From Escherichia coli (GTDB taxonomy: Bacteria; Pseudomonadota; Gammaproteobacteria; Enterobacterales; Enterobacteriaceae), in the NCBI RefSeq assembly GCF_044324785.1, contig NZ_CP172127.1: a DNA stretch of 64,000 bases, one strand, 5' to 3'. Made by a program: the position numbers and the translations under genes. The notes beneath the pieces are model-generated. The model ran no database searches and was not told the DNA's origin. It saw nothing but the letters and a program-made list of their open reading frames with translations. Below are positions 35,476-57,804 of this stretch, piece after piece (position 1 is the stretch's first letter; the number at the start of each line of letters is the position of its first letter).

Positions 35476-35549
35476 TAGGTTGAGTGAATGTTAAACGCCC
35501 GGAGGCGCTTCCCGCGATCCGGGCTTTTTAATGGCAAGGTTTGTAACCT

Positions 35550-35585
35550 GTAGGCCTGATAAGACGCGCAAGCGTCGCATCAGGC
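35550..35585. repeat. REP (repetitive extragenic palindromic) element
   Basis: gtaggcctgataagacgcgcaagcgtcgcatcaggc between cysA and cysM. Confidence 0.65.
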
Positions 35586-35608
35586 AACACCACGTATGGA
35601 TAGAGATC

Positions 35609-36520
35609 GTGAGTACATTAGAACAAACAATTGGCAATACGCCTCTGGTGAAGTTGCAGCGAATGGGGCCGAATAACGGCAGTGAAGTCTGGTTGAAACT
35701 GGAAGGCAATAACCCGGCAGGTTCGGTAAAAGATCGTGCGGCACTTTCGATGATCGTCGAGGCGGAAAAGCGCGGGGAAATTAAACCGGGTGACGTGCTG
35801 ATCGAAGCCACCAGTGGTAACACCGGCATTGCGCTGGCAATGATTGCCGCGCTTAAAGGCTATCGCATGAAATTGCTGATGCCCGACAACATGAGCCAGG
35901 AACGCCGTGCGGCGATGCGTGCTTATGGTGCGGAACTGATTCTTGTCACCAAAGAGCAGGGCATGGAAGGTGCGCGCGATCTGGCGCTGGAGATGGCGAA
36001 TCGTGGCGAAGGAAAGCTGCTCGATCAGTTCAATAATCCCGATAACCCTTATGCGCATTACACCACCACCGGCCCGGAAATCTGGCAGCAAACCGGCGGG
36101 CGCATCACTCATTTTGTCTCCAGCATGGGGACGACCGGCACTATCACCGGCGTTTCACGCTTTATGCGCGAACAATCCAAACCGGTGACCATTGTTGGCC
36201 TGCAGCCGGAAGAGGGCAGCAGCATTCCCGGCATTCGCCGCTGGCCTGCGGAATATCTGCCGGGGATTTTCAACGCTTCTCTGGTGGATGAGGTGCTGGA
36301 TATTCATCAGCGAGAAGCGGAAAACACCATGCGCGAACTGGCGATGCGGGAAGGAATATTCTGTGGCGTCAGCTCCGGCGGCGCGGTTGCCGGAGCACTG
36401 CGCGTGGCAAAAGCTAACCCCGGCGCGGTGGTTGTGGCGATCATCTGCGATCGCGGCGATCGCTACCTTTCTACCGGGGTGTTTGGGGAAGAGCATTTTA
36501 GTCAGGGGGCGGGGATTTAA
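35609..36520 (+). CDS. cysM: cysteine synthase B (O-acetylserine sulfhydrylase B)
   Basis: 303 aa from GTG at 35609 (STLEQTIGNTPLVKLQRMGP...), PLP-enzyme fold. Confidence 0.9.
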   Translation: MSTLEQTIGNTPLVKLQRMGPNNGSEVWLKLEGNNPAGSVKDRAALSMIVEAEKRGEIKPGDVLIEATSGNTGIALAMIAALKGYRMKLLMPDNMSQERRAAMRAYGAELILVTKEQGMEGARDLALEMANRGEGKLLDQFNNPDNPYAHYTTTGPEIWQQTGGRITHFVSSMGTTGTITGVSRFMREQSKPVTIVGLQPEEGSSIPGIRRWPAEYLPGIFNASLVDEVLDIHQREAENTMRELAMREGIFCGVSSGGAVAGALRVAKANPGAVVVAIICDRGDRYLSTGVFGEEHFSQGAGI

Positions 36521-36522
36521 GA

Positions 36523-36891
36523 TTATTGCGCAGGCACCGTTTTATCCGTCTGCGCAATTAGCGCATGTAAAAAAGGTTGTGCGTTCTCATCGCTTTTACC
36601 GGGCATCTTCACGATATACGGCTTCCCGGTAATCGATGACGACGAGGCTACCTTATCAATAAACTGCTCGGCAGTGTCAATGCGGTTACGGGTATTGCCG
36701 AGCTTCAGACGCAGGTGGGAAACCGCTTCATCGCAGGTATGTTCATCACCGTTGCGCACAAATATCAAATCCTTTTTCTGTGCTAATCCCTCCAGCATGG
36801 CGTTGATACGGGCTTCTTCATGGGCAGTTAACTTCGCGTAAACGGGGAGTGTCATTAGCAGCGTAATGACCAGATAAATGATTTTCTTCAT
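36523..36891 (-). CDS. yfeK: small secreted protein, YfeK-like
   Basis: 122 aa with signal peptide [19 protein letters not shown]; divergent from pdxK; stop is 2 bp from the cysM stop. Confidence 0.55.
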
Positions 36892-36916
36892 TGAATTAAC
36901 TTATCCTTGTTTTGTG

Positions 36917-36982
<66 letters not shown>

Positions 36983-36995
36983 GAGAAAAAATTAA

Positions 36996-37847
36996 ATGAG
37001 TAGTTTGTTGTTGTTTAACGATAAGAGCAGGGCATTGCAGGCGGATATCGTCGCCGTGCAGTCGCAGGTAGTGTACGGCAGCGTAGGCAACAGCATTGCC
37101 GTGCCTGCTATCAAACAGAACGGCCTGAATGTCTTTGCCGTGCCGACGGTATTGCTGAGCAATACACCGCATTATGACACTTTCTACGGTGGTGCGATTC
37201 CGGACGAATGGTTTAGCGGCTATTTGCGTGCGCTTCAGGAGCGTGATGCGTTGCGCCAACTTCGTGCTGTAACCACGGGCTATATGGGAACGGCATCGCA
37301 AATCAAAATCCTTGCCGAGTGGCTGACTGCGCTACGCAAAGACCATCCTGACCTATTGATCATGGTCGATCCGGTGATTGGCGATATTGATAGCGGAATT
37401 TATGTCAAACCTGACCTTCCCGAGGCGTATCGACAATATTTACTGCCGCTGGCGCAGGGAATTACCCCCAATATCTTTGAGCTGGAAATCCTGACCGGTA
37501 AAAATTGCCGCGATCTCGACAGTGCCATTGCTGCTGCAAAAAGTCTGCTTTCAGACACATTAAAATGGGTAGTGATAACCAGCGCCTCCGGTAATGAAGA
37601 AAATCAGGAGATGCAGGTGGTGGTGGTCAGTGCCGACAGCGTGAATGTCATTTCCCATTCACGGGTTAAAACTGACCTGAAAGGGACTGGCGACCTGTTT
37701 TGTGCTCAGCTTATCAGTGGCTTGTTGAAAGGTAAGGAATTAACTGACGCGGTACATAGCGCGGGATTACATGTGCTGGAGGTGATGCGCTATACCCAGC
37801 AGCATGGTAGCGATGAATTGATTTTGCCGCCGCTGGCGGAAGCATAA
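36996..37847 (+). CDS. pdxK: pyridoxal/pyridoxine/pyridoxamine kinase
   Basis: 283 aa [37 protein letters not shown]... Confidence 0.9.
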
Positions 37848-37875
37848 AAAAATGGCGCCGATGGGCGCCATTTTT
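37846..37875. terminator. bidirectional rho-independent terminator between pdxK and crr
   Basis: aaaaaatggcgcc gatg ggcgccattttt: 8-bp GC stem flanked by an A-tract and a T-tract. Confidence 0.65.
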
Positions 37876-37889
37876 CACTGCGGCAAGAA

Positions 37890-38399
37890 TTACTTCTTGA
37901 TGCGGATAACCGGTGTTTCACCCACAGTCACGCTACCGGACAGTTTGATCAGTTCTTTGATTTCGTCCATGTTGGAGATAACAACCGGAGTCAGGGTAGA
38001 CTTGGCTTTCTCTTCCAGCAGCGGCAGATCAAATTCAATGACAGTATCGCCAACTTTCACGCGCTGACCTTCTTCAGCAATACGCTTGAAGCCTTCGCCT
38101 TTCAGTTCAACGGTGTCGATACCGAAGTGGACGAACAGTTCAACGCCGCTATCAGATTCGATAGAGAACGCGTGGTTGGTTTCAAAGATTTTACCAATGG
38201 TGCCGTCTACAGGCGCGACCATTTTGTTTCCAGTTGGTTTGATAGCAATGCCATCACCAACGATTTTTTCCGCAAAAACGACATCCGGCACGTCTTCGAT
38301 ATTGACGATCTCGCCAGAGAGCGGAGCAATGATCTCAATAGTTCCGGTATCCTTCTTGTCGTCGGAAACCAGAGATTTCAGTTTATCGAACAAACCCAT
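37890..38399 (-). CDS. crr: PTS glucose-specific EIIA component
   Basis: 169 aa [39 protein letters not shown]... Confidence 0.95.
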
Positions 38400-38439: not shown

Positions 38440-40167
38440 TTAGCAGATTGTTTTTTCTTCAATGAACTTGTTAACCAGCGTCATTAACTCGTCCGTTGTC
38501 GGTTGAGCAAGAGCCTGCTCTGCTAACACCTTCGCATCTTCGAAGTTCGTGTTACGGATAATCTTCTTAATGCGCGGGATAGAAATGGCGCTCATAGAGA
38601 ATTCGTCCAGACCCATCCCCAGCAACAGAAGTGTAGCACGTTCATCGCCAGCAAGCTCACCACACATGCCAGTCCATTTGCCTTCAGCATGAGAAGCATC
38701 AATAACTTGCTTGATCAAGTTCAGCACGGACGGTGACATTGGCTGGTAAAGGTGTGAAATCATATCATTACCACGGTCAACTGCCAGAGTGTACTGCGTT
38801 AAATCATTGGTGCCGATACTAAAGAAATCAACTTCTTTGGCTAAATGACGTGCAATTGTTGCGGCAGCCGGTGTTTCCACCATTACGCCGATTTCAATTG
38901 ACTCGTCAAACGCTTTACCTTCGTCGCGCAGTTCCTGTTTGTAGATTTCGATCTCTTTGCGCAGTGCACGTACTTCTTCAACAGAGATGATCATCGGGAA
39001 CATAATGCGCAATTTACCGAAAGCCGAGGCACGCAGGATAGCGCGGAGCTGATCGCGCAGGATCTCTTTACGATCCATCGCGATACGGATAGCGCGCCAG
39101 CCAAGGAACGGGTTCTCTTCTTTCGGGAAGTTCATGTATGGCAGCTCTTTGTCGCCGCCGATGTCCATGGTACGAACGATAACCGCCTGCGAGCCACACG
39201 CTTCAGCCACTGCTTTGTAAGCAGCAAACTGTTCTTCTTCAGTGGGCAGCGCGTCGCGGTCCATGAACAGAAACTCAGTACGATACAGACCAACGCCTTC
39301 AGCGCCGTTACGCTCTGCACCTTCAACGTCACGAACCGTACCAATGTTAGCGCACACTTCTACCTGGTGACCGTCCAGCGTAATAGCTGGCAGATCTTTC
39401 AGTTTAGCAAGCTCTGCTTTTTCAGAAGCCACTTGCTCCTGAACAGCGCGCATTTTATCAATAACTTCGTTGGTTGGATTGACGTAAACCTGATTATTTA
39501 CGGCATCCAGAATCAGATAGTCGTCATTTTTCACCTGAGAGGTGACGCTACCGGTACCCACGATAGCAGGCAGTTCCAGAGAACGCGCCATGATAGAGGT
39601 GTGGGAAGTACGGCCACCCGCGTCGGTGATGAAACCCAGCACCTTCTTCAGGTTCAGCTGTGCGGTTTCGGACGGCGTCAGGTCAGCGGCAACCAGAATG
39701 ACTTCATCCTGAATGGCGCTCAGGTCGATAATCTTCAGGCCCAGGATGTTGCGCAGCAGGCGCTTACCGATATCACGTACGTCAGCCGCACGTTCTTTCA
39801 GGTATTCATCATCCAGCTCTTCCAGGGCAGAAGCCTGACCTTCGATAACTTCATGAGCAGCTGCGTCAGCTGTCATGTGCTTATCTTTAATCAGGGCTAT
39901 GATTTCCTGCTCCAGCTCCTCATCTTCGAGCAGCATAATATGCCCTTCAAAGATGGCTTCTTTTTCTTCACCGAACGTTTCACCAGCTTTCGTTTTGATC
40001 GTTTCCAGCTGGGCTGATGCCTTGGCACGACCGCTCAGAAAACGTTCAACTTCCTGATCAACCTGGTCGGCAGAAATTTTTTTCCGGTCAATGACAATTT
40101 CGTCTTCTTTCAGAAGCAGAGCTTTACCGAAAGCGATACCCGGGGATGCTAAAATGCCTGAAATCAT
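38440..40167 (-). CDS. ptsI: PTS enzyme I (phosphoenolpyruvate-protein phosphotransferase)
   Basis: 575 aa [32 protein letters not shown]... Confidence 0.95.
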
Positions 40168-40211
40168 AACCCTACCTTACTTGTGACTGATTTTTAAAAG
40201 AACCCGGGAAA

Positions 40212-40469
40212 TTACTCGAGTTCCGCCATCAGTTTAACCAGATGTTCAACCGCTTTCTGCTCGTCTTCGCCTTCTGCGGAGATAGTCACAACGGTACCTT
40301 GAGTCAGGCCCAGAGTCTGCAGTTTAAACAGGCTTTTCGCGCTGGCGCTTTTGCCGTTGGAAGTCACAGTAATTTCAGAAGTGAAGCCCTTAGCTTCTTT
40401 TACAAACTGGGCAGCAGGGCGGGTGTGCAGACCGTTCGGAGCGGTAATGGTAACTTCTTGCTGGAACAT
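40212..40469 (-). CDS. ptsH: PTS phosphocarrier protein HPr
   Basis: 85 aa [29 protein letters not shown]... (active-site His15 context). Confidence 0.95.
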
Positions 40470-40707
40470 TGTATTTCCCCAACTTATAGGTTTAGTGTTG
40501 TGGAACTAAAGTCTAGCCTGGCGGTTCGACTTTAGCCTGTATTGTTAGCGCCAGTTTTTAACAGACGCGACGCACGAAGAGCGCAATACAGTCCATTGCT
40601 GGCGGGTGTTGACCGCTGACGTTTCGTACGTCATTAAACATTATGCCGCTAAAGGAAGAATTGAACCAAATCATAAAATCGATTCAGCTTTGGCTTTTCC
40701 TGTAACG

Positions 40708-40730
40708 ATTAATTTCGCGCATCAAAATAA
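40708..40730. promoter_or_regulatory. candidate Mlc/NagC-type operator in the ptsH promoter region
   Basis: attaatttcgcgcatcaaaataa: TT-N-cgcgc-N-AA dyad resembling Mlc operators, about 240 bp upstream of ptsH. Confidence 0.35.
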
Positions 40731-40802
40731 TTAGTCTGGTTAAATACCAGTTCCGACAGGCTGAATCAATGCCAGGAGGGGCGAAAGTTTGAAGCAGGCC
40801 AC

Positions 40803-40830
40803 AAAAAAGCACCTGAAAAGGTGCTTTTTT
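40803..40830. terminator. bidirectional rho-independent terminator downstream of cysK
   Basis: aaaaaagcacc tgaaaa ggtgctttttt immediately after the cysK stop. Confidence 0.65.
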
Positions 40831-40852
40831 ACGCATTTTTAACAAGCTGGCA

Positions 40853-41824
40853 TTACTGTTGCAATTCTTTCTCAGTGAAGAGATCGGCAAACAATGCGGT
40901 GCTTAAATAACGCTCACCCGATGACGGTAGAATAACCACAATATTCTTGTTGGTAAAGCTTTCATCTTCTTGTAGTTTCAACGCCGCAGCAACAGCTGCT
41001 CCAGAAGAGATACCAGCAAGAATACCTTCTTCTTCCATCAGACGACGCGCGGTAGAAATGGCTTCTTCATTGGTGATGCCAATGACTTTGTCGACCAGCT
41101 TGAGATCGAGGTTAGCCGGGATAAAACCAGCGCCAATACCCTGAATTTTATGCGGGCCAGGTTTAATCTCTTCACCTGCCAGCGCCTGGGCGATAACTGG
41201 AGAATCGGTTGGCTCAACAGCGACAGAGATAAGATCGGTCTTGCCTTTGGTGCCTTTAATGTAGCGGCTGACACCGGTCAGCGTACCGCCAGTGCCAACA
41301 CCAGCAATAAATACATCAACCTGACCGTCGGTATCTTCCCAGATCTCCGGACCGGTGGTTTTTTCGTGAATTTCAGGGTTTGCCGGATTGCTGAATTGTT
41401 GCAGCAGCAGGTATTTCTCTGGATTGCTGGCGACAATTTCTTCTGCTTTTTGGATTGCGCCTTTCATGCCTTTAGCACCTTCGGTCAGCACCAGGTTTGC
41501 ACCTAACGCTTTCAGCAGCTTGCGGCGTTCAATACTCATGGTTTCTGGCATGGTCAGGGTGAGTTTGTAACCGCGAGCGGCAGCGACATAGGCCAGTGCA
41601 ATCCCGGTATTACCGCTGGTTGGTTCAACCAGTTCAACGCCTGGTTTCAGCACGCCGCGCTTTTCGGCATCCCAAATCATGTTGGCACCGATACGGCACT
41701 TAACGCTGAAGCTGGGGTTACGAGATTCCACCTTCGCCAGAATGCGTCCGTTACCGATGCGATTCAGGCGAACCAGCGGCGTGTGACCGATAGTCAGCGA
41801 GTTATCTTCAAAGATCTTACTCAT
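40853..41824 (-). CDS. cysK: cysteine synthase A (O-acetylserine sulfhydrylase A)
   Basis: 323 aa [44 protein letters not shown]... Confidence 0.95.
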
Positions 41825-42008
41825 GGCCTGTCCTTAACTGTATGAAATTGGGATACAACAGGTAGCATACCCGCTCAGAGAATATGCGGAAGTAAGGATT
41901 TAGCATATCTATATGCAGAAGGGAAATAATGACATGCGAGATGGAATAAGGGGCGGCATAAGCCACCCCTGTTTCACACAAACGGTTTACAAAATAACCG
42001 GTAGATTG

Positions 42009-42770
42009 TTACCGCCACATCGCGTGTTTATCGCGATAGCAATCGACCCACATCGCCGTCGCGCCACAAACGGCAACGGGCATGATGAACAGATTAAGCA
42101 ACGGGATCATCGTAAACAGGCTGGTTAAAGCACCAAACTGCATATTGGTGATTTTGCGTGTGCGCAGGGCGGTGCGCATCTCTTTAAACGGCACTTTGTG
42201 GTTATCGAAGGGGTAATCGCAATACTGGATGGCTAACATCCAGGCGCTAAACAGGAACCACAGTACCGGCGCGACGGTTTGCCCAATACCAGGGATGAAG
42301 TAAAGAATTAGCAATACAATTGCGCGCGGCAGATACCAGGCAAATTTTTGCCATTCGCGTTTCATGATTCGCGGCACATCTTTCATGATACCGAAAATCC
42401 CGGTATCTGGCGGTGTAGCGCCAGTCAATCGTGCTTCCAGTTGTTCAGCCAATAAACCGTTAAACGGAGCGGCAATCCAGTTAGCAATCGTTGAGAAGAA
42501 ATAGCCAAACACTAACAGCACGGAGATGACTGCCAGAGGCCACAACAGATAGCTCAGCCATTGTAACCAGTCCGGAACATAACTCATGAGAGTCGGGATC
42601 CAGACATCGAGTTGCGTAAATAGCCACCAGAATGCGCCCCCCATCAACAAAATATTGACCAGCAGCGGTAAAATAACGAAACGCCGAATCCCAGGTTGCG
42701 AGACGAGCTTCCAGCCTTGCGCAAAATAGTAAAAACCGCTGCGTGGGGCAGATGTGAATGATGAAACCAT
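42009..42770 (-). CDS. cysZ: sulfate transporter CysZ
   Basis: 253-aa polytopic membrane protein; position upstream of cysK. Confidence 0.85.
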
Positions 42771-42999
42771 AATCAGGATGAGCTCCTTTTGACCAATCCC
42801 AGGAAAATTCTGCGTATTTTACCGGGTAATTGCGCAATGGACAGTTAGGATATGTTCGAAAAAACAGCAAAAAGCACGATTTCATCTATCTTTGTGCTGT
42901 GAAAGTTAATAGTGCACTTGCACTTGAGGTAATCGGCAAATACTCTTAGTGAGTAAATGTTTGCCGTGGTGGCAAGGTGTTAGAACAACAGAGAATATA

Positions 43000-43944
43000 A
43001 TGATGCAGGATTTGCGTCTGATATTAATCATTGTTGGCGCGATCGCCATAATCGCTTTACTGGTACATGGTTTCTGGACCAGCCGTAAAGAACGATCTTC
43101 TATGTTCCGCGATCGGCCATTAAAACGAATGAAGTCAAAACGTGACGACGATTCTTATGACGAGGATGTCGAAGATGATGAGGGCGTTGGTGAGGTTCGT
43201 GTTCACCGCGTGAATCATGCCCCGGCTAACGCCCAGGAGCATGAGGCTGCTCGTCCGTCGCCGCAACACCAGTACCAACCGCCTTATGCGTCTGCGCAGC
43301 CGCGTCAACCGCAGCCGGTGCAGCAACCCGTGCAGCAGCCTGCCTATCAGCCGCAGCCTGAACAGCCGTTGCAGCAGCCAGTTTCGCCACAGGTCGCGTC
43401 AGCGCCGCAGCCAGTGCATTCAGCGCCGCAACCGGCACAACAGGCTTTCCAGCCTGCAGAACCCGTAGCGGCACCACAGCCTGAGCCTATAGCGGAACCG
43501 GCTCCAGTTATGGATAAACCGAAGCGCAAAGAAGCGGTGATTATCATGAACGTCGCGGCGCATCACGGTAGCGAGCTAAACGGTGAACTGCTTCTTAACA
43601 GCATTCAACAAGCGGGCTTCATTTTTGGCGATATGAATATTTACCATCGTCATCTTAGCCCGGATGGCAGCGGCCCGGCGTTATTCAGCCTGGCTAATAT
43701 GGTGAAACCGGGAACCTTTGATCCTGAAATGAAGGATTTCACTACTCCGGGTGTCACTATCTTTATGCAGGTACCGTCTTACGGTGACGAGCTGCAGAAC
43801 TTCAAGCTGATGCTGCAATCTGCGCAGCATATTGCCGATGAAGTGGGCGGTGTAGTTCTTGACGATCAGCGCCGTATGATGACTCCGCAGAAATTGCGCG
43901 AGTACCAGGACATCATCCGCGAAGTCAAAGACGCCAACGCCTGA
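43000..43944 (+). CDS. zipA: cell division protein ZipA (FtsZ membrane anchor)
   Basis: 314 aa from ATG at 43000: N-terminal TM ([26 protein letters not shown]), P/Q-rich linker, C-terminal FtsZ-binding domain. Confidence 0.85.
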
Positions 43945-44005
43945 TACACTTAAGGCATATTAACTCCTCTTCGAACCCCCGCTTGTCGGGGGTTTTTAGC
44001 ATTGA

Positions 44006-46030
<2,025 letters not shown>

Positions 46031-46031
46031 G

Positions 46032-46250
46032 ATGGAAAAAGAGCAGCTGATTGAAATAGCCAATACGATAATGCCGTTTGGCAAATACAAAGGGCGTCGC
46101 TTAATCGACCTGCCGGAGGAGTATCTTCTGTGGTTTGCCCGCAAAGATGAGTTCCCGGCAGGGAAGCTCGGTGAGCTAATGCAAATCACGCTGCTGATTA
46201 AAACTGAGGGGCTGACGCAACTGGTCCAGCCCCTGAAGCGTCCTCTTTAA
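46032..46250 (+). CDS. ypeB: small DUF3820-family protein YpeB
   Basis: 72-aa ORF starting 2 nt after the ligA stop. Confidence 0.7.
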   Translation: MEKEQLIEIANTIMPFGKYKGRRLIDLPEEYLLWFARKDEFPAGKLGELMQITLLIKTEGLTQLVQPLKRPL

Positions 46251-47245
46251 GCTTTATTGGCGCGGCTTTCCTGCTGCGCCTGTAACTGTTCGGTCTGGTG
46301 TTTGTATCGACGCGCCAGCACCGCACAGACCATCAATTGGATCTGATGGAAAATCATCAGAGGCAGCACCATCATACCGATCACCGATGTGGGGAAAAGA
46401 ATGTTTGCCATCGGGATGCCATTTGCCAGACTCTTTTTCGAACCACAAAAGACGATAGTAATTTCATCTGCCTTATTGAAGCCCAGTCGGCGTGCCATAA
46501 AGACGTTAACTACGATCACGATAGCCAGAAGAACGCAGCTGACCACCACGATAAACAGCAATGATCCCCAGCCAACTTTATGCCAGATACCATTAACAAC
46601 GGCTTCGCTAAACGCTGTATAAACCACCAACAGAATGGACGTCTGGTCAGTTTTCGCAATCCATTTTTTATTGCGCGACACCCAGTCACCAATCCACGGC
46701 CGGGAAAGATGCCCCAACACAAACGGCAGCAGCAGTTGCAGCATAATTTTACCGACCTGCTCAAGGCTGCCTCCCGCACCGTGAACATTCATCACCAGAC
46801 CAACCAGCAATGGTGAAAGGAAAATCCCCAGCAGGCTGGATGCTGACGCAGAACAAACCGCTGCCGCGACGTTACCGCCCGCCATTGAAGTAAAGGCGAT
46901 TGCAGACTGCACGGTAGCGGGGAGAATGCACAAGTAGAGAAAACCGGAGTAGAGCATCGGGTCGACATTTACCGGTTTCCACCAGGCAAACAGCACGCCC
47001 AGAATCGGAAACAATACGAAGGTGCTGCACATTACCCACAAATGCAGTCGCCAGTGCCCACCGCCAGCAATAATCGCCTCACGCGACAACTTCGCGCCGT
47101 GCATAAAAAACAGCAGGGCAATCGCTGCGGTGGTCAGATTTTCAAAGAAGGGGACGAAATCGCCTCTGGCCGGAAAGAAAGAGGCCAGCAACACCACCGT
47201 GATCAGGGTTAAGGTGAAAGGATCGAGGATACGAAAAAGTTTCAT
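46247..47245 (-). CDS. yfeH: bile acid:sodium symporter-family membrane transporter
   Basis: 332-aa polytopic membrane protein; divergent from the LysR-type regulator. Confidence 0.8.
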   Translation of the reverse strand: MKLFRILDPFTLTLITVVLLASFFPARGDFVPFFENLTTAAIALLFFMHGAKLSREAIIAGGGHWRLHLWVMCSTFVLFPILGVLFAWWKPVNVDPMLYSGFLYLCILPATVQSAIAFTSMAGGNVAAAVCSASASSLLGIFLSPLLVGLVMNVHGAGGSLEQVGKIMLQLLLPFVLGHLSRPWIGDWVSRNKKWIAKTDQTSILLVVYTAFSEAVVNGIWHKVGWGSLLFIVVVSCVLLAIVIVVNVFMARRLGFNKADEITIVFCGSKKSLANGIPMANILFPTSVIGMMVLPLMIFHQIQLMVCAVLARRYKHQTEQLQAQQESRANKA

Positions 47246-47334
47246 AAAGACTCCAGATGATCGATGGTTCTATTGTGCTTCTTCCAGTTTGAGAAATAAA
47301 ATTGATTTATTGCATCCATTCATGAAGAAAACAG

Positions 47335-48261
47335 ATGAATTATTCTTTAAAACAATTAAAGGTTTTCGTCACAGTAGCGCAGGAGAAAAGTTTTAGTCGT
47401 GCAGGAGAGCGTATCGGCCTGAGCCAGTCGGCAGTGAGTCACAGTGTGAAGGAGCTGGAAAATCATACTGGTGTTCGCCTGCTGGACAGAACCACGCGTG
47501 AAGTGGTGCTTACAGATGCAGGGCAGCAGTTGGCTTTGCGTCTTGAGCGACTGCTGGATGAACTGAACAGCACGTTGCGCGATACCGGGCGTATGGGGCA
47601 ACAACTGAGCGGAAAAGTTCGGGTCGCTGCCAGCCAGACCATTTCCGCGCATCTTATTCCGCAATGCATTGCTGAAAGCCATCGCCGCTATCCAGATATT
47701 CAGTTTGTCCTGCACGATCGTCCGCAGCAGTGGGTGATGGAAAGTATTCGCCAGGGAGATGTCGATTTTGGCATCGTCATCGATCCAGGCCCAGTGAGCG
47801 ATCTGCAATGTGAAGCGATTCTTTCCGAGCCTTTCTTTCTGCTTTGCCATCGCGATAGCGCTTTGGCCGTGGAAGATTATGTACCCTGGCAGGCATTACA
47901 GGGAGCGAAATTGGTGTTGCAGGATTACGCGTCAGGCAGCCGACCGCTGATTGACGCAGCTCTGGCGCGCAACGGTATTCAGGCGAATATTGTGCAGGAG
48001 ATTGGTCATCCGGCGACGCTGTTCCCGATGGTAGCCGCAGGCATCGGCATTAGTATTCTTCCCGCACTGGCGCTGCCGTTACCTGAAGGTAGCCCGCTGG
48101 TGGTAAAGCGCATTACGCCGGTGGTGGAACGCCAGTTGATGCTGGTGCGCAGGAAGAACCGTTCACTTTCCACCGCCGCTGAAGCGTTATGGGACGTGGT
48201 ACGAGGCCAGGGCCGTGCGCTAATGGCTGGGCGGGAAGGGGATCCGCTGTATCAGATATAG
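47335..48261 (+). CDS. yfeR: LysR-family transcriptional regulator
   Basis: 308 aa, N-terminal HTH ([42 protein letters not shown]). Confidence 0.8.
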
Positions 48262-48593
48262 ATATCGATCTGAGTCGTTTTTTCAACAGGATTTGGAAGG
48301 GATGCATTCAAAGACAAACTCTGCTCTTTCTCCTGCGCCTTTTCTGCCTGCTGTCTTTGCAACTGCGCCAGTTGTGTTTCCAGTAGGGTGATTTGCTGCT
48401 GAATCAATTCGGCCTGTTTTTGCTTGTCTTCAGCACTGCCGCTAGTGTCTGCAATCTCTTTAATTTGTTGAGTGAGTTTGATGATTTGCTGACTTATCCG
48501 CGCAATTTGTGAAGCAACATCGCTACCTTCTGATGCCCTGTTACTACTCTGTGTTTGTATGGAAGGAATTGAAGTTGAAGAGATAGTGGCCAT
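48252..48593 (-). CDS. small Q-rich coiled-coil protein, FlxA-like
   Basis: 113-aa ORF with GAGGA 6 nt upstream of ATG; S/T-rich N-terminus then heptad-like Q/L/I repeats ([18 protein letters not shown]...[23 protein letters not shown]); overlaps the yfeR 3' end by 10 bp. Confidence 0.5.
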
Positions 48594-48681
48594 TGTTCAG
48601 TCCTCGTCACTGTACGAGGTAATATCGGCAGAAGAACAAGGAACTTGAGAAGAAAAATCAATCTTACAAACCGCATATAGC

Positions 48682-48708
48682 AAAAAAGCGCCTTTAGGGC
48701 GCTTTTTT
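48682..48708 (-). terminator. rho-independent terminator of the tRNA operon (palindromic)
   Basis: aaaaaagcgcc ttta gggcgctttttt directly downstream of tRNA-Lys. Confidence 0.65.
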
Positions 48709-48712
48709 ACAT

Positions 48713-48788
48713 TGGTGGGTCGTGCAGGATTCGAACCTGCGACCAATTGATTAAAAGTCAACTGCTCTACCAACTGAGCTAACGACCC
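48713..48788 (-). tRNA. lysV: tRNA-Lys (anticodon UUU)
   Basis: Reverse complement reads GGGTCGTTAGCTCAGTTGGTAGAGCAGTTGACTTTTAATCAATTGGTCGCAGGTTCGAATCCTGCACGACCCACCA. Confidence 0.95.
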
Positions 48789-48792
48789 GAAG

Positions 48793-48868
48793 TGGTGGGT
48801 GATGACGGGATCGAACCGCCGACCCCCTCCTTGTAAGGGAGGTGCTCTCCCAGCTGAGCTAATCACCC
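48793..48868 (-). tRNA. valY: tRNA-Val (anticodon UAC)
   Basis: Reverse complement reads GGGTGATTAGCTCAGCTGGGAGAGCACCTCCCTTACAAGGAGGGGGTCGGCGGTTCGATCCCGTCATCACCCACCA. Confidence 0.95.
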
Positions 48869-48914
48869 ACTTCGGTACTTCACATTTTTACAAGAAATTT
48901 AGCTGGCGAGAAAG

Positions 48915-48990
48915 TGGTGGGTGATGACGGGATCGAACCGCCGACCCCCTCCTTGTAAGGGAGGTGCTCTCCCAGCTGAGCTAATCACCC
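48915..48990 (-). tRNA. valX: tRNA-Val (anticodon UAC)
   Basis: Identical 76-nt sequence to the preceding tRNA-Val. Confidence 0.95.
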
Positions 48991-49034
48991 ACTTCTCAAT
49001 TTCTTGCTACACGGCGGAGACTACATAAAGTAGT

Positions 49035-49110
49035 TGGTGGGTGATGACGGGATCGAACCGCCGACCCCCTCCTTGTAAGGGAGGTGCTCTCCCAGCTGAG
49101 CTAATCACCC
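49035..49110 (-). tRNA. valU: tRNA-Val (anticodon UAC)
   Basis: Identical 76-nt sequence; first gene of the four-tRNA operon. Confidence 0.95.
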
Positions 49111-49127
49111 CCGCTGTGTGGAGTCGC

Positions 49128-49155
49128 ATTATAGGGAGAGTTCAAAATGAGTCAA
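49128..49155 (-). promoter_or_regulatory. sigma70 promoter of the valU-valX-valY-lysV tRNA operon
   Basis: On the minus strand: TTGACT, 16-nt spacer, TATAAT, then GC-rich discriminator gcgactcc. Confidence 0.55.
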
Positions 49156-49368
49156 CGCATTTTCTAAAGAAATTGTTCGTTCGTCGTAAATTTAAGCAAG
49201 ATGATCGCAAAACAGACCGTGTTGCGCAATTTGTCAACGAAAACAATAATGCGTAAGGTTGCAACCCGAACTACATTGAGGAATCAGGCGGGAGTGATAG
49301 AATATCGCCCACTCAATTTTTCCAGGATTTGCCGGTTGTCGGCATCTTTCTAAACGTAAGGCCATTTC

Positions 49369-50784
49369 ATGAAAATCAAAACTCGCTTCGCGCCAAGCCC
49401 AACAGGCTATCTGCACGTTGGCGGCGCGCGTACTGCTCTTTACTCCTGGCTTTTTGCACGTAACCACGGCGGTGAGTTCGTGCTGCGTATTGAAGACACC
49501 GATCTTGAGCGTTCCACGCCGGAAGCTATCGAAGCCATTATGGATGGCATGAACTGGCTGAGCCTGGAGTGGGATGAAGGTCCGTACTACCAGACCAAAC
49601 GTTTTGATCGCTACAACGCGGTGATCGATCAGATGCTGGAAGAGGGCACAGCTTATAAATGCTATTGTTCTAAAGAGCGCCTGGAAGCGCTGCGCGAAGA
49701 GCAAATGGCGAAAGGTGAGAAGCCGCGTTATGACGGTCGCTGCCGCCACAGCCATGAGCATCATGCTGATGATGAACCGTGCGTTGTACGTTTTGCTAAC
49801 CCGCAGGAAGGTTCTGTTGTTTTTGACGATCAGATCCGTGGCCCGATTGAGTTCAGCAACCAGGAGCTGGATGATCTGATCATTCGCCGTACCGATGGTT
49901 CCCCAACCTATAACTTCTGTGTGGTTGTTGATGACTGGGATATGGAAATCACCCATGTTATCCGTGGCGAAGACCATATCAACAACACGCCGCGCCAGAT
50001 CAACATTCTTAAAGCCCTGAAAGCGCCGGTACCGGTTTACGCGCACGTTTCTATGATCAACGGCGATGACGGTAAAAAACTGTCCAAACGTCACGGGGCG
50101 GTCAGCGTAATGCAGTATCGTGATGACGGTTATCTGCCAGAAGCACTGCTGAACTATCTGGTGCGTCTGGGCTGGTCCCACGGCGATCAGGAAATCTTCA
50201 CTCGTGAAGAGATGATCAAATACTTCACCCTGAATGCCGTCAGCAAATCTGCCAGTGCGTTCAACACCGACAAGCTGCTGTGGCTGAACCATCACTACAT
50301 TAACGCGCTGCCGCCGGAGTATGTTGCTACTCACTTACAGTGGCACATTGAGCAGGAAAATATCGATACCCGTAACGGCCCGCAGCTGGCTGATCTGGTG
50401 AAACTGCTGGGCGAACGCTGCAAGACGCTGAAAGAGATGGCACAGAGCTGCCGTTATTTCTACGAAGATTTTGCTGAGTTCGATGCCGACGCCGCGAAAA
50501 AACATCTGCGTCCAGTAGCGCGTCAGCCGCTGGAAGTAGTTCGTGACAAACTGGCCGCGATTACTGACTGGACAGCTGAAAACGTTCATCACGCTATTCA
50601 GGCGACGGCGGATGAGCTGGAAGTGGGTATGGGTAAAGTTGGTATGCCGCTGCGTGTCGCCGTTACCGGTGCGGGGCAGTCTCCGGCGCTGGATGTTACC
50701 GTTCACGCAATCGGTAAGACCCGCAGTATCGAGCGTATCAACAAAGCGCTGGCTTTTATTGCTGAACGCGAAAATCAGCAGTAA
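49369..50784 (+). CDS. gltX: glutamyl-tRNA synthetase
   Basis: 471 aa [49 protein letters not shown] (HIGH-type motif) and KLSKR motif. Confidence 0.95.
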
Positions 50785-50802
50785 TTAGCGCATAAAAGAT
50801 AA

Positions 50803-50832
50803 ACGGCAGGAGAGATACCCCTGCCGTTTTTT
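50803..50832. terminator. bidirectional rho-independent terminator between gltX and yfeD
   Basis: acggcagg agagatacc cctgccgt followed by ttttt. Confidence 0.6.
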
Positions 50833-50834
50833 AT

Positions 50835-51227
50835 TTATTCTGATTCATCTATGTCGAGACGAGCAAGGAAATTACGAATTCCTTCGCGTGACAAAAATTG
50901 CGCAACTTTTTCCTGCTCACTGTGAGTCATGTTGTCTATTGCGCTGATGATTTGCCGATAAGCAGGAGTGCGAATCCCCGGTGCGTATTCGGCAAGGGGT
51001 TCTTCGGCTTCCAGAAGCATCGGCGTGTTATGGAAGGCTGGCGTGTTCTGAATAAACTCGCAAACTTGCGTATCGACCAGAATAAGTCTGGCACGACCGC
51101 CTTTCACGCCAGGAAATTTTTCCGTTTTCCAGCCTTTTTCTCTGATCCAACGGTTAACAGTTTGTTTAGCCACACCGAGGCATTCAGCCAGTTCTTCGGT
51201 GGTCATTTTATTGCGTAATCTTTTCAT
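50835..51227 (-). CDS. yfeD: DUF1323-family putative DNA-binding protein
   Basis: 130 aa MKRLRNKMTTEELAECLGVAKQTVNRWIREKGWKTEKFPGVKGGRARLILVD...; paralog of the adjacent ORF. Confidence 0.75.
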   Translation of the reverse strand: MKRLRNKMTTEELAECLGVAKQTVNRWIREKGWKTEKFPGVKGGRARLILVDTQVCEFIQNTPAFHNTPMLLEAEEPLAEYAPGIRTPAYRQIISAIDNMTHSEQEKVAQFLSREGIRNFLARLDIDESE

Positions 51228-51228
51228 A

Positions 51229-51573
51229 TTATTTGCTATCGCGAATCCCTAAGCGTTGTAATAATCCGATAATCCCTTCCCGCAGAAGCAAGGATGTAAA
51301 CTGTTTTTGTTCAACTGGCGTCATCTCTTTCGCCAGTGTCACCAGCAACACTTCAAGCGGCGCATCACCAGACAGGGCAGGCGCTTCTCCCTGACCTTCT
51401 GGACGTTCAGCATTGCGAATATATTCACGAACCTGTTCATTGACGTGAACCAGTCGGGCTTTGCCACCCTGGACGCCTGGTTTTGGTGACGTTGTCCAGC
51501 CTTCCTTGCGTACCCATTTATTAATGGTCTGGCGGCTATAGCCGGTCAGTCTGGCAAGTTCATCTGGCGTCAT
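51229..51573 (-). CDS. yfeC: DUF1323-family putative DNA-binding protein
   Basis: 114 aa from the internal ATG preceded by AAGGAGAGG (MTPDELARLTGYSRQTINKWVRKEGWTTSPKPGVQGGKARLVHVN...); track ORF extends 5 codons upstream. Confidence 0.75.
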   Translation of the reverse strand: MTPDELARLTGYSRQTINKWVRKEGWTTSPKPGVQGGKARLVHVNEQVREYIRNAERPEGQGEAPALSGDAPLEVLLVTLAKEMTPVEQKQFTSLLLREGIIGLLQRLGIRDSK

Positions 51574-51747
51574 CCTCTCCTTGAACATAACAATTCCCTG
51601 AATGTATGTGGGTCTATTAGTAGTTCATTTTATAACACCACTTTACAGGAAACCGTGACATGAATAACTACTGAATGCGAGCGGTTTTCCAAAATTGTTC
51701 ATTTGCCTGATTTTTCAGCGATTGAAACTACACGTTGCAATTTGCCG

Positions 51748-51776
51748 TTGACACATTCGGGCGGAATTCATATGAT
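51748..51776 (+). promoter_or_regulatory. sigma70 promoter of the alaX-alaW tRNA operon
   Basis: TTGACA, 17-nt spacer, TATGAT, then GC-rich discriminator gccgcccg, about 30 nt upstream of the first tRNA-Ala. Confidence 0.55.
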
Positions 51777-51808
51777 GCCGCCCGTCAACTCGACAAGCTT
51801 TACGTGAC

Positions 51809-51884
<76 letters not shown>

Positions 51885-51923
51885 AATTTTGCACCCAGCA
51901 AATTTGGTACGTAAACGCATCGT

Positions 51924-51999
<76 letters not shown>

Positions 52000-52008
52000 A
52001 ATTTCCAA

Positions 52009-52035
52009 CCCTCGCTGCAAAGCGGGGGTTTTTTG
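52009..52035 (+). terminator. rho-independent terminator after the tRNA-Ala pair
   Basis: ccctcgct gcaa agcggggg followed by ttttttg. Confidence 0.6.
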
Positions 52036-52206
52036 TCTCTGCTTTTTGCCGCTTTTGTAATACAGTCTACGTCCGGGTTAGCGCCGCCTGGTGAAAGCAT
52101 CATTGGATGAAAAATCGGCAACAGGCTGGCCCCTGTTTGCTTCGCGATGCGAATAAACTTATTATTTGTGTGCCTGAAAACCCCGATCAGTGAGAGTAGT
52201 GTACTC

Positions 52207-54396
52207 ATGTTTGTGGAGCATAACCTGATAAAAAATATCAAGATATTCACACTAGCGTTTACGCTCACCGTGGTACTTATTCAGCTATCCCGTTTTATTT
52301 CGCCACTTGCCATTATCCATTCCAGTTATATCTTTCTGGCGTGGATGCCACTGTGCGTAATGCTGTCAATCTTGTTTATCTTTGGCTGGCGCGGTGTCGT
52401 TCCCGTTTTATGCGGGATGTTTTGCACCAATCTGTGGAACTTTCATCTCTCTTTTTTACAGACTGCGGTCATGCTCGGCAGCCAGACGTTTGTCGTGTTG
52501 TGTGCCTGCGCAATATTACGCTGGCAGCTGGGGACGCGTTGGCGTTATGGTTTGACCAGCCGATATGTCTGGCAACGTCTGTTCTGGCTTGGTTTGGTGA
52601 CGCCGATCGGCATCAAATGCAGCATGTATCTTGTGGGGAGCTTTTTTGATTTCCCGCTAAAGATATCCACCTTTTTCGGCGATGCGGATGCCATTTTCAC
52701 AGTCGTTGATTTACTAAGCCTTTTCACCGCTGTGCTGATTTACAACATGCTTTTCTACTATCTCACTCGCATGATTGTAAGTCCCCACTTTGCGCAGATA
52801 TTGTGGCGCAGGGATATCGCTCCGTCGTTGGGCAAAGAGAAACGCGCATTTACCTTAAGCTGGCTGGCAGCGTTAAGCGTGCTGCTACTTCTGCTGTGCA
52901 CACCGTATGAAAATGACTTTATTGCCGGTTACCTGGTGCCCGTTTTCTTCATTATCTTTACCCTCGGGGTCGGTAAGCTCCGCTATCCGTTTTTAAATCT
53001 CACCTGGGCTGTTTCAACGCTTTGCCTTCTGAATTACAACCAGAACTTTTTGCAAGGGGTGGAAACCGAATATTCGCTGGCATTTATTCTCGCAGTGCTG
53101 ATTTCCTTTAGCGTTTGCCTGCTCTATATGGTGCGCATTTATCATCGCAGTGAATGGCTTAATCGCCGCTGGCATTTGCAGGCGCTGACCGATCCGTTAA
53201 CGCTCCTACCCAACTTTCGTGCGTTAGAACAAGCGCCGGAGCAAGAGGCGGGCAAGAGTTTTTGCTGCCTGCGCATTGATAATCTTGAGTTTATGAGCCG
53301 TCATTACGGCTTAATGATGCGCGTTCACTGTATCCGATCAATTTACCGTACGCTGCTGCCGTTGATGCAGGAAAACGAAAAGTTGTATCAATTGCCGGGT
53401 AGTGAACTGCTGTTAGTGCTGAGTGGACCGGAAACGGAAGGGCGACTCCAGCATATGGTTAACATCCTGAATAGTCGGCAAATTCACTGGAACAATACCG
53501 GGCTGGATATGGGCTATGGTGCTGCCTGGGGGCGTTTTGATGGAAATCAGGAAACCCTGCAACCCTTGTTGGGGCAGTTAAGCTGGCTGGCGGAGCAATC
53601 CTGCGCACATCACCATGTGCTGGCGCTGGATAGCAGAGAGGAGATGGTTTCCGGGCAGACCACTAAACAGGTGCTATTGCTGAATACCATTCGTACGGCG
53701 TTAGATCAGGGTGATTTGCTGCTCTACGCCCAGCCAATTCGCAACAAAGAGGGTGAAGGTTATGATGAGATCCTCGCGCGACTGAAATATGACGGCGGCA
53801 TTATGACCCCGGATAAGTTTCTGCCCCTTATTGCTCAGTTTAACCTTAGCGCGCGTTTTGATTTGCAAGTGCTGGAATCCCTGTTGAAGTGGCTGGCAAC
53901 ACATCCTTGCGACAAAAAAGGCCCGCGCTTTTCAGTCAATTTAATGCCGCTCACGCTGCTGCAAAAGAATATTGCCGGGCGGATTATTCGTCTGTTTAAG
54001 CGTTATCACATCTCCCCGCAGGCGGTCATTCTTGAGATCACCGAGGAGCAGGCGTTTTCTAACGCAGAAAGCAGCATGTACAACATCGAGCAACTGCATA
54101 AGTTTGGTTTCCGGATTGCGATTGATGACTTTGGCACCGGCTATGCCAACTACGAACGGTTAAAGCGTTTGCAGGCTGATATCATCAAAATTGATGGCGT
54201 CTTTGTGAAAGATATCGTCACGAATACGCTGGATGCGATGATTGTGAGATCAATTACCGATCTGGCGAAAGCAAAGTCATTGAGTGTAGTCGCGGAGTTT
54301 GTCGAGACGCAACAGCAGCAGGCGCTATTACATAAGCTCGGAGTGCAATATCTGCAAGGGTATTTGATTGGTCGCCCGCAGCCATTAGCTGATTAA
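52207..54396 (+). CDS. pdeA: membrane-anchored c-di-GMP phosphodiesterase (MASE1, degenerate GGDEF, EAL)
   Basis: 729 aa from ATG at 52207 (MFVEHNLIKNIKIFTLAFTL...); N-terminal polytopic region and C-terminal EAL domain. Confidence 0.8.
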   Translation: MFVEHNLIKNIKIFTLAFTLTVVLIQLSRFISPLAIIHSSYIFLAWMPLCVMLSILFIFGWRGVVPVLCGMFCTNLWNFHLSFLQTAVMLGSQTFVVLCACAILRWQLGTRWRYGLTSRYVWQRLFWLGLVTPIGIKCSMYLVGSFFDFPLKISTFFGDADAIFTVVDLLSLFTAVLIYNMLFYYLTRMIVSPHFAQILWRRDIAPSLGKEKRAFTLSWLAALSVLLLLLCTPYENDFIAGYLVPVFFIIFTLGVGKLRYPFLNLTWAVSTLCLLNYNQNFLQGVETEYSLAFILAVLISFSVCLLYMVRIYHRSEWLNRRWHLQALTDPLTLLPNFRALEQAPEQEAGKSFCCLRIDNLEFMSRHYGLMMRVHCIRSIYRTLLPLMQENEKLYQLPGSELLLVLSGPETEGRLQHMVNILNSRQIHWNNTGLDMGYGAAWGRFDGNQETLQPLLGQLSWLAEQSCAHHHVLALDSREEMVSGQTTKQVLLLNTIRTALDQGDLLLYAQPIRNKEGEGYDEILARLKYDGGIMTPDKFLPLIAQFNLSARFDLQVLESLLKWLATHPCDKKGPRFSVNLMPLTLLQKNIAGRIIRLFKRYHISPQAVILEITEEQAFSNAESSMYNIEQLHKFGFRIAIDDFGTGYANYERLKRLQADIIKIDGVFVKDIVTNTLDAMIVRSITDLAKAKSLSVVAEFVETQQQQALLHKLGVQYLQGYLIGRPQPLAD

Positions 54397-54403
54397 CAGG
54401 CGT

Positions 54404-54436
54404 AAAAAAGCCGGGGAATGATCCCCGGCTTTTTTA
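54404..54436. terminator. bidirectional rho-independent terminator between pdeA and nupC
   Basis: aaaaaagccgggga atgatc cccggctttttt. Confidence 0.7.
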
Positions 54437-54445
54437 TGTATGGTT

Positions 54446-55648
54446 TTACAGCACCAGTGCTGCGATTGACGCAGACAGCACACTCACCAGGGTAGAGCCG
54501 TAAACCAGCTTCAGACCGAAGCGAGAAACCACGTTACCTTGCTCTTCATTCAGGCCTTTAACTGCACCTGCGATAATCCCGATTGAAGAGAAGTTAGCGA
54601 AGGAAACCAGGAACACAGAGATGATGCCTTCAGCACGCGGAGAGAGCGTGGAAGCAATTTTCTGCAGATCCATCATCGCAACGAACTCGTTGGAAACCAG
54701 TTTGGTCGCCATGATACTGCCCACTTGCAGTGCTTCACTGGAAGGAACACCCATCACCCATGCAATCGGATAGAAGATGTAGCCCAGGATGCCCTGGAAG
54801 GAGATGCTGTAGCCAAACCAGCCAGTCACGGTGGCAAACAGTGCGTTCAGCGCGGCGATCAGGGCGATAAAGCCGATCAGCATCGCGGCAACGATAATGG
54901 CAACTTTGAAACCTGCCAGAATGTATTCACCCAGCATTTCGAAGAAGCTCTGACCTTCGTGCAGGTTGGACATCTGGATGTTTTCTTCACTGGCATCAAC
55001 ACGGTAAGGGTTGATCAGCGACAGCACGATAAAGGTGCTGAACATGTTCAGTACCAGTGCCGCAACGACGTATTTCGGTTCCAGCATGGTCATGTATGCA
55101 CCAACGATGGACATCGACACGGTGGACATCGCCGTGGCAGCCATGGTGTACATGCGATTGCGGGAGATTTTGCCGAGGATATCTTTATAGGCAATAAAGT
55201 TTTCAGACTGACCCAGAATCAGGGAGCTGACGGCGTTAAAGGATTCCAGTTTGCCCATGCCGTTGACTTTGGAGAGCAGGAAACCAATTGCGCGGATAAT
55301 CACCGGCAACACGCGAATGTGCTGGAGAATACCGATCAGTGCAGAGATAAAGACGATTGGGCACAGCACTTTAAGGAAGAAGAATGCCAGGCCTTGATCA
55401 TTCATGCTACCAAAGACGAAGTTAGTCCCTTCGTTGGCAAATCCGAGCAGTTTTTCAAACATTTCGGAGAAGCCTTTCACGAAGCCTAAACCAACGTCGG
55501 AGTTCAGGAAGAACCACGCCAGTAACACTTCGATAACAAGCAGTTGAATAACATAACGGATACGAATTTTTTTGCGGTCGCTGCTTACCAGCAGTGCGAG
55601 AATCGCAACAACGGCAAGTGCCAGTACAAAATGAAGGACGCGGTCCAT
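54446..55648 (-). CDS. nupC: nucleoside:H+ symporter (CNT family)
   Basis: 400 aa from ATG at 55648 ([22 protein letters not shown]...). Confidence 0.9.
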
Positions 55649-55915
55649 ATTTGCTCCAAATATGAGGCAGGTTAAATTTCCGTGCACATTCTATGTAACA
55701 TGGTTAAGGAAAACGAGATCTGACACACACTATAATGACGTCCTGTGACAAGCTTCAAAAATAGTGAGCTGTCATACATTTCTGCTATGTTGTGTATGGA
55801 AGCTGAAAGTTATGTAAATGTGCTAACATTAAACATAACCATAACATTCAAGTCATCAATCTTTTCGTAGTCATAATCCTGGTCTATCAGAGAAATCACC
55901 ACAACCCATTTAAAT

Positions 55916-55934
55916 GAATTTGATAATCATTCTC
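55916..55934. promoter_or_regulatory. Fur box upstream of mntH
   Basis: gaatttgataatcattctc matches the Fur consensus GATAATGATAATCATTATC at about 15 of 19 positions. Confidence 0.5.
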
Positions 55935-55949
55935 GTTTGGCATAGCATG

Positions 55950-55971
55950 AAACATAGCAAAGGCTATGTTT
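55950..55971. promoter_or_regulatory. MntR operator upstream of mntH
   Basis: Palindrome aaacatagc aaag gctatgttt ending 13 nt before the mntH ATG. Confidence 0.5.
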
Positions 55972-55974
55972 TAG

Positions 55975-57222
<1,248 letters not shown>

Positions 57223-57250
57223 TTCAACTGGCGTCGTACCAGGCATCACT

Positions 57251-57285
57251 GGCGGATGCGGCGTAAAACGCCTTATCCGCCCTAC
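57251..57285. repeat. REP element (first of a BIME pair)
   Basis: ggcggatgcggcgtaaaacgccttatccgccctac. Confidence 0.65.
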
Positions 57286-57303
57286 GCGTTAAAGAGACGG
57301 TTT

Positions 57304-57340
57304 GTAGGCCCGATAAGACGCACTAGCGTCGCATCAGGCC
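57304..57340. repeat. REP element (second, inverted orientation)
   Basis: gtaggcccgataagacgcactagcgtcgcatcaggcc. Confidence 0.65.
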
Positions 57341-57363
57341 TTGTGCTCCATTGGCAAATGTGT

Positions 57364-57690
57364 TTAATGGCGGTGTCCATGTCCGCGGCCTTTTCCGCGA
57401 TGATCGTCACGATCGCGCCAGCCTTCACGATAGCCACGCTCATACGCTTTACGCTTATCCCAGCCACGATGGTAGCCATTATCATGACGCCACCAGCGGT
57501 TTTTACGCCATTCATAATTGCGATGCCAGTAGTCACGGTCGCGCCAGTGACCACCGTCCCAGTAATTACCGTAATGATCGCGATCGCCAATTTGTAATTT
57601 GATTGATGGCAGTAGGGTGATTTCACCTGCGTTTGCCGCAAGCGGGGTAAATGCCATCAGGGCGGCCGCCAGAAACAGTGACCTGAACAT
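57364..57690 (-). CDS. ypeC: secreted DUF2502-family protein, His/Arg/Trp/Tyr-rich
   Basis: 108 aa with signal peptide [21 protein letters not shown]; low-complexity C-terminus ...[17 protein letters not shown]. Confidence 0.75.
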
Positions 57691-57804
57691 TGTTATTCTC
57701 CTTCACGATCGAAGCCGTCAGCGGCCTGTTAACGCAATATTACGGGGAGGTAAAGCCCCGTATCATCGCCATAACTCTTAAATCATAAAGGAGAGCATTT
57801 TTTG

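Follow-up and report, generated by a model that had tools for sequence, protein, structure and literature searches.

The cysM–yfeK boundary described here, which lies in a 64-kb stretch of an Escherichia coli genome (the window), most probably represents the common unoccupied haplotype of this locus, with yfeS being a gene of an accessory cassette and not a core gene that has been lost; we put the probability of this reading at roughly 85 per cent. An earlier note on the same DNA had singled out the apparent absence of yfeS between the convergent cysM and yfeK genes. The gene is indeed missing, but its absence is not unusual: among 5426 complete E. coli genomes the empty junction was found in 4036 and the yfeS segment in 1381, so that the allele of the window is the one that most strains have. 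Missing yfeS is ordinary presence/absence of an accessory gene at this position rather than the mark of a special deletion or a regulatory signal, and because K-12 represents the minority state its gene order should not be assumed to be the E. coli default. The finding itself matters little; a mildly interesting residue is that both haplotypes are common to E. coli and Pseudocitrobacter.

The gene upstream of the boundary, cysM (35609..36520, + strand; cysteine synthase B, 303 aa), was assigned from the list of open reading frames, a PALP domain and the RefSeq annotation of homologous loci, and its product shares 98 per cent amino acid identity with K-12 CysM. It is the final gene of the cysPUWAM cluster, with cysPUWA upstream and with pdxK, crr and ptsI downstream of the junction. 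The cysM stop codon (taa, 36518–36520) is separated by a 2-bp spacer, ga (36521..36522), from the stop codon of yfeK, which reads tta on the + strand (36523–36525). The yfeK gene (36523..36891, − strand, 122 aa) adjoins pdxK (36996..37847, + strand), confirming the synteny cysM–yfeK–pdxK–crr–ptsI, and both the sequence and the reading-frame list bear out the convergent arrangement and the 2-bp gap first described. Ahead of the annotated start the cysM frame stays open for a further 78 nt (35531–35608), giving a 329-aa reading frame from the ATG at 35531; relative to the 303-aa CysM from 35609 this is an in-frame extension that probably has no significance.

The 122-aa reading frame is a complete, full-length protein of the DUF5329/YfeK family. 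It matches PF17263 (DUF5329) with 108.7 bits over residues 24–115 (cut-off 27) and the NCBIfam equivalog model NF007646 (PRK10318.1-3) with 273.9 bits over positions 1–122 of 122 (cut-off 171), and it is 97 per cent identical in amino acid sequence to K-12 YfeK. The N-terminus resembles a signal peptide and the C-terminal tail reads ...TDKTVPAQ*. The identical 122-aa sequence is already recorded for E. coli on 256 contigs, and the gene holds the position between pdxK and cysM that is conserved for yfeK in Enterobacteriaceae. It had been allowed that this reading frame might itself be a fusion containing yfeS sequence, and this was ruled out: tblastn and the domain scans detected no yfeS part, and the family models DUF5329 and PRK10318.1-3, the latter end to end, account for the protein. 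A search for defence systems with PADLOC gave no match for YfeK, for YfeS or for the genes that fill this boundary in other species.

In K-12 RV308, as annotated in RefSeq, the order is cysM, yfeS (735 nt, 244 aa, with a WGR domain), yfeK (124 aa) and pdxK, so the K-12 order given in the note, with a 244-codon yfeS between yfeK and cysM, was right. A tblastn search of the whole 64-kb window with K-12 YfeS (WGR, PF05406) returned no intact, fused or remnant copy at E ≤ 1e-5, from which it follows that the window really lacks yfeS and that the 122-aa reading frame has not taken it up by fusion. The flanking genes, their order and their orientation are otherwise alike in the window and in the K-12 pdxK–yfeK–yfeS–cysM segment (b2418–b2421), and alignment of the two, the check proposed for the absence of yfeS, gave a length difference of 959 nt with yfeS missing from the window.

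The exchange between the two alleles is sharply bounded, with breakpoints that were set from extracts of the junctions and not from the MAFFT alignment. Towards cysM the two alleles have ...GGGGATTTAAG in common, and towards yfeK CGCAGGCACCGTTTTATCC...; the sequence that separates these is seven allele-specific nucleotides long in the window, attattg (36522..36528), as established from the alignments, the junction extracts and the 959-nt difference, and K-12 has 966 nt (positions 2423–3388 of the K-12 locus, L001). The K-12 stretch contains, in order, GATTAAT, a REP/BIME element, yfeS, a second copy of GGATTAAT and TTCCTTC, and homology with the window resumes at cgcaggcacc (36529 onward). The part of yfeK that precedes codon 120 is common to K-12 and the window. 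As a consequence of this substitution of 966 nt for 7 nt, YfeK ends in PAEGN* in K-12 (124 aa) and in PAQ* in the window (122 aa). The 2-bp spacer of the window holds none of the consensus REP palindromes, which are present in K-12 (L001:2437–2583) and are repeated throughout its genome.

The survey of the junction was made with a 95-nt probe spanning it, searched against the 5426 complete E. coli genomes, and a genome was scored as empty where the probe matched contiguously and as occupied where the K-12 cassette was matched over at least 80 per cent of its length; in genomes below that coverage only the REP part matches, as a dispersed repeat. The empty form occurs in O157:H7, Nissle 1917 and ATCC 11775, and the yfeS form in K-12 derivatives and one O6:H16 strain. 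The 95 nt around the junction are 100 per cent identical between the window and O157:H7 TR01, and the majority of the remaining genomes in which the junction is contiguous show 96.8–98.9 per cent identity over it (lowest seen, 93.7 per cent), differing by point changes only; the junction sequence hardly varies among those empty alleles that were sampled. In empty junctions of the O157:H7 TR01, Nissle 1917 and 18KM2445 type, the RefSeq annotation likewise has a 122-aa yfeK at 2 bp from cysM, and the 2-bp gap recurs in 18KM2445, FORC_069, MRSN352231, GPEC1186, Br_112 and Nissle 1917, the gap in FCI29 being 3 bp. The cysM–pdxK segment of the window (35600–37900) reaches a best identity of 98.3 per cent among the 5426 complete genomes, and the stretch at 38500–58000 about 99.0 per cent over 19.5 kb; the former is more divergent than its surroundings, and none of the complete genomes is closely related to the source strain.

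Several properties of the K-12 insert point to gain of yfeS. The cassette measures about 960 bp, brings its own REP/BIME element, and contains yfeS as its only annotated gene, the one Pfam domain of that gene being WGR. The GC content of yfeS is 39 per cent, as against 56 per cent for cysM and 53 per cent for the window. The 8-bp direct repeat GGATTAAT brackets the cassette (L001:2422–2429 and 3374–3381) and also occurs in Pseudocitrobacter (L006) and in E. marmotae (L034), so that the K-12 cassette has a direct target repeat at both ends, as looked for in an insertion of the transposition type. The identity of YfeS homologues drops from 89–98 per cent (E. coli, Shigella, Pseudocitrobacter) straight to 65 per cent or less, with those named at the lower level coming from Paenibacillus, Dysgonomonas, Lysinibacillus and Clostridium in a patchy distribution. 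The low GC content, the private BIME, the direct repeats and the scattered homologues together point to acquisition of the cassette. The occupied haplotype, yfeS together with the 124-aa yfeK, is the state of roughly one in four E. coli, among them K-12. The WGR-domain gene yfeS is uncharacterised and behaves like a small mobile cassette common to E. coli and Pseudocitrobacter; as far as titles and abstract openings go, the yfeS literature does not appear to treat its function or distribution, and several of the items are not about the gene. In one strain, E. coli LR-03 (NZ_AP027474.1 1336375–1338105, hit H31), the gene is itself split by IS1A, with two WGR fragments around the IS1 transposase.

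It might be supposed instead that the ancestor was K-12-like and that the window junction is a deletion scar, the deletion having removed the BIME, yfeS and the last yfeK codons to leave the PAQ* end and the 2-bp gap. The breakpoint does fall inside the yfeK tail, where it is straddled by the left arm of an inverted repeat described below, and no clean precursor of an insertion is at hand: an unoccupied site with the 124-aa tail, a single GGATTAAT and no cassette did not turn up in any of the 5426 E. coli genomes, where that search gave empty alleles of 106–107 nt at 93–94 per cent identity as its best full-length matches. The insertion as such is thus undocumented. The 124-aa tail (PAEGN*) accompanies yfeS in every case, and its AEGN loosely resembles the tails of Klebsiella YfeK (AESQ, VAEK), which speaks against acquisition; from the tail sequences, the longer form could be older than the 122-aa one. 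Nevertheless, the empty allele is the majority state, spread across distant strains with a near-invariant junction, which a scar would have to explain by one very old deletion or by many identical ones. The seven allele-specific bases are not derivable from K-12 by a single clean deletion, the same empty junction occurs in Pseudocitrobacter faecalis, and the composition of yfeS is foreign and its distribution patchy. A deletion origin is accordingly regarded as improbable. The assessment of the ancestral state relied on counts and on a handful of outgroups; probably, the original insertion of yfeS took place outside E. coli, maybe in another genus, and the whole haplotype was then imported.

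What a deletion at this locus leaves behind can be seen in E. marmotae GCA_036294505.1 (L034:2876–3193), where about 650 bp of yfeS have been deleted from a K-12-type haplotype, so that loss of yfeS is demonstrable in that species. Of the yfeS gene a 49-codon stump of the 5′ end is left there, the BIME and the two GGATTAAT junctions persist, as does the tail of the 124-aa YfeK, and the locus is a decayed third state. No such remnant of yfeS or REP is present in the window, which is therefore most likely an unoccupied allele and not a deletion scar.

The comparison across species, made by a YfeK-based scan with one genome per species, extends both states to a second genus. Pseudocitrobacter faecalis has an empty junction like that of the window (taagtttattgcgcaggcacc), and a Pseudocitrobacter metagenome-assembled genome (MAG) and several isolates have yfeS with K-12 junctions; both haplotypes thus occur in Pseudocitrobacter with breakpoints as in E. 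coli. The DNA of the cassette is 94–99 per cent identical between K-12 and the Pseudocitrobacter MAG, above most of its flanks. Over yfeK (36523–36891 in the window), nucleotide identity to Pseudocitrobacter (L005 and L006) climbs from 58 per cent at the 5′ end to 91–96 per cent at the 3′ end, which suggests a breakpoint of inter-genus recombination inside yfeK; Pseudocitrobacter cysM is as similar as that of other Escherichia species. From this pattern, the junction region would most likely have been exchanged between Escherichia and Pseudocitrobacter by homologous recombination through the conserved flanks.

A more ambitious interpretation, which can be entertained tentatively although it seems unlikely, is that the empty haplotype with the 122-aa yfeK and the haplotype with the 124-aa yfeK, yfeS and BIME form a long-lived polymorphism that crosses genera (Escherichia coli, E. 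marmotae, Shigella and Pseudocitrobacter), shuttled by recombination through cysM and the 3′ end of yfeK and maintained by selection. Were this so, selection would act in favour of YfeS, an uncharacterised WGR-domain protein, as well as against it, and the cysM–yfeK boundary would be a small integration hotspot across the Enterobacteriaceae.

In further taxa the boundary is taken up by a short spacer or by unrelated genes, and each time homology breaks off at one and the same point of the yfeK tail. In Escherichia albertii NBRC 107761 (L007:4370–5749) the filler is 1840 bp long with 34 per cent GC and encodes reading frames of 280 and 175 aa, for which Pfam and PADLOC gave no confident match, a weak hit to DKNYY being the only one. 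The insert of Citrobacter sedlakii NBRC 105722 (L012:4431–8142) is 3.8 kb long and encodes two proteins of about 628 and 614–654 aa, at least one with TPR motifs; it had no match to a defence system. Klebsiella spallanzanii and Superficieibacter electus have a SnoaL-like/DUF4440 gene (135–140 aa) between yfeK and cysM, and Pseudocitrobacter has one between pdxK and yfeK instead (the three SnoaL-like/DUF4440 genes are at L010:4398–4805, L013:4473–4895 and L022:1981–2388), and a DUF218 gene occupies the boundary in two further Enterobacteriaceae. In Escherichia sp. E1V33 (L004:1400–1440) the two genes meet in an overlap of about 12 bp, with cysM ending in TGA and yfeK in ...TVPSNP*.

The junction also carries an inverted repeat, which had been placed inside the end of the YfeK-like frame and is confirmed there, its left arm ttgcgcag at 36526..36533 and its right arm ctgcgcaa at 36550..36557. 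The 8-bp arms and the 16-nt loop between them lie within the final 11 codons of yfeK: on the coding (−) strand the right arm reads (A)TT GCG CAG, covering two nucleotides of I112 and all of A113 and Q114, and the left arm (C)CT GCG CAA, covering two nucleotides of P120 and all of A121 and Q122. Two Ala-Gln codon pairs (GCG CAR), which share a self-complementary GCGC core, give rise to the repeat as a by-product. The right arm, which K-12 shares, belongs to coding sequence conserved across the YfeK family, and the left arm to the variable tail. Ten empty junctions were aligned, those of the window, of seven further E. coli, of Pseudocitrobacter faecalis and of Escherichia sp. E1V33, and 8 of the 10 have both arms intact. 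In L003 and in every yfeS haplotype the left arm carries a mismatch, and E1V33 has lost it by deletion, in each case with no compensating change. The window contains 86 perfect 8-bp inverted repeats with loops of 3–30 nt, about one per 750 bp, as compared with about 35 in first-order Markov simulations, and the repeat at the junction is not above what chance would give.

This repeat had been proposed as a possible shared terminator or deletion scar, and neither proposal was supported. A consensus scan of both strands returned no terminator-like site at the junction; the stem has 8 bp with a loop of 16 nt, outside the 3–8 nt of a short loop, and no T-run follows it on either side (tail ttagcgcatg on the + strand and taatcttaaatcc on the − strand). 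The minimum-energy fold of the + strand does not use the repeat, that of the − strand does so in a 9-bp stem at −14 kcal/mol, and the respective z-scores against shuffled sequence are −0.03 and −0.43. No Rfam family was found at the junction, the one sub-threshold match (mir-23, E = 0.054) being a chance match inside cysM. Given the lack of a T-tract, folding like that of shuffled sequence and loss in some relatives, the repeat is probably not a terminator, and as an intrinsic or shared terminator it was rejected on the consensus scan and on folding no better than that of shuffled sequence; the coding sequence explains it. As for a scar, the evidence favours acquisition of yfeS, and the repeat is accounted for by its two Ala-Gln pairs. 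The repeat is not a canonical terminator, nor is it the scar of a site-specific recombination event.

There is some reason to consider a less canonical role, in which the repeat would serve as a shared, bidirectional termination or pause hairpin driven by collision of polymerases and needing no U-tract. Hairpin-dependent, collision-driven bidirectional terminators that differ from intrinsic ones have been described at convergent gene pairs of E. coli (bioRxiv 10.1101/2022.10.23.513370), and the window repeat lies exactly at a convergent junction that has no intergenic space, is used in the − strand fold and is intact in most of the aligned empty junctions. With the hairpin-type bidirectional terminators at convergent pairs, as that preprint cites them from Ju et al. 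2019, it shares the convergent pair and an inverted repeat at the boundary; it differs from them in lying wholly within a coding region, in being weak and in lacking compensatory conservation. Against a functional hairpin also stand the absence of a terminator in the consensus scan, the long loop with no T-run, the + strand optimum that ignores the repeat, the constraint on the right arm as coding sequence, the uncompensated loss or mismatch of the left arm, and how often 8-bp repeats of this kind occur in the window. Such a function is therefore considered doubtful.

How transcription would end at so tight a boundary may be read in part from its geometry. With only 2 bp between the stop codons, cysM transcripts must end in antisense to yfeK and yfeK transcripts in antisense to cysM, and both would presumably be stopped by Rho-dependent termination or by collision of polymerases. 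The − strand RNA that follows the yfeK stop and lies antisense to the 3′ end of cysM (36440..36520) is rich in C and poor in G (36 per cent C and 19 per cent G over the first 80 nt), and on composition it is a possible Rho-loading region; on the + strand no C/G bias appears past cysM until about 200 nt downstream. REP elements between convergent genes have been proposed as 3′-UTR regulators and bidirectional terminators (bioRxiv 10.64898/2026.03.23.713779). The cysM–yfeS spacer of K-12 has such a REP/BIME element between its genes, and this BIME, which folds strongly (z = −4.9 versus shuffles), would supply cysM with a structured 3′ element; the window junction has no REP, and cysM is thus without that element here. 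Most E. coli have no intergenic space for a terminator between cysM and yfeK, which makes the boundary a natural test case for tight convergent termination.
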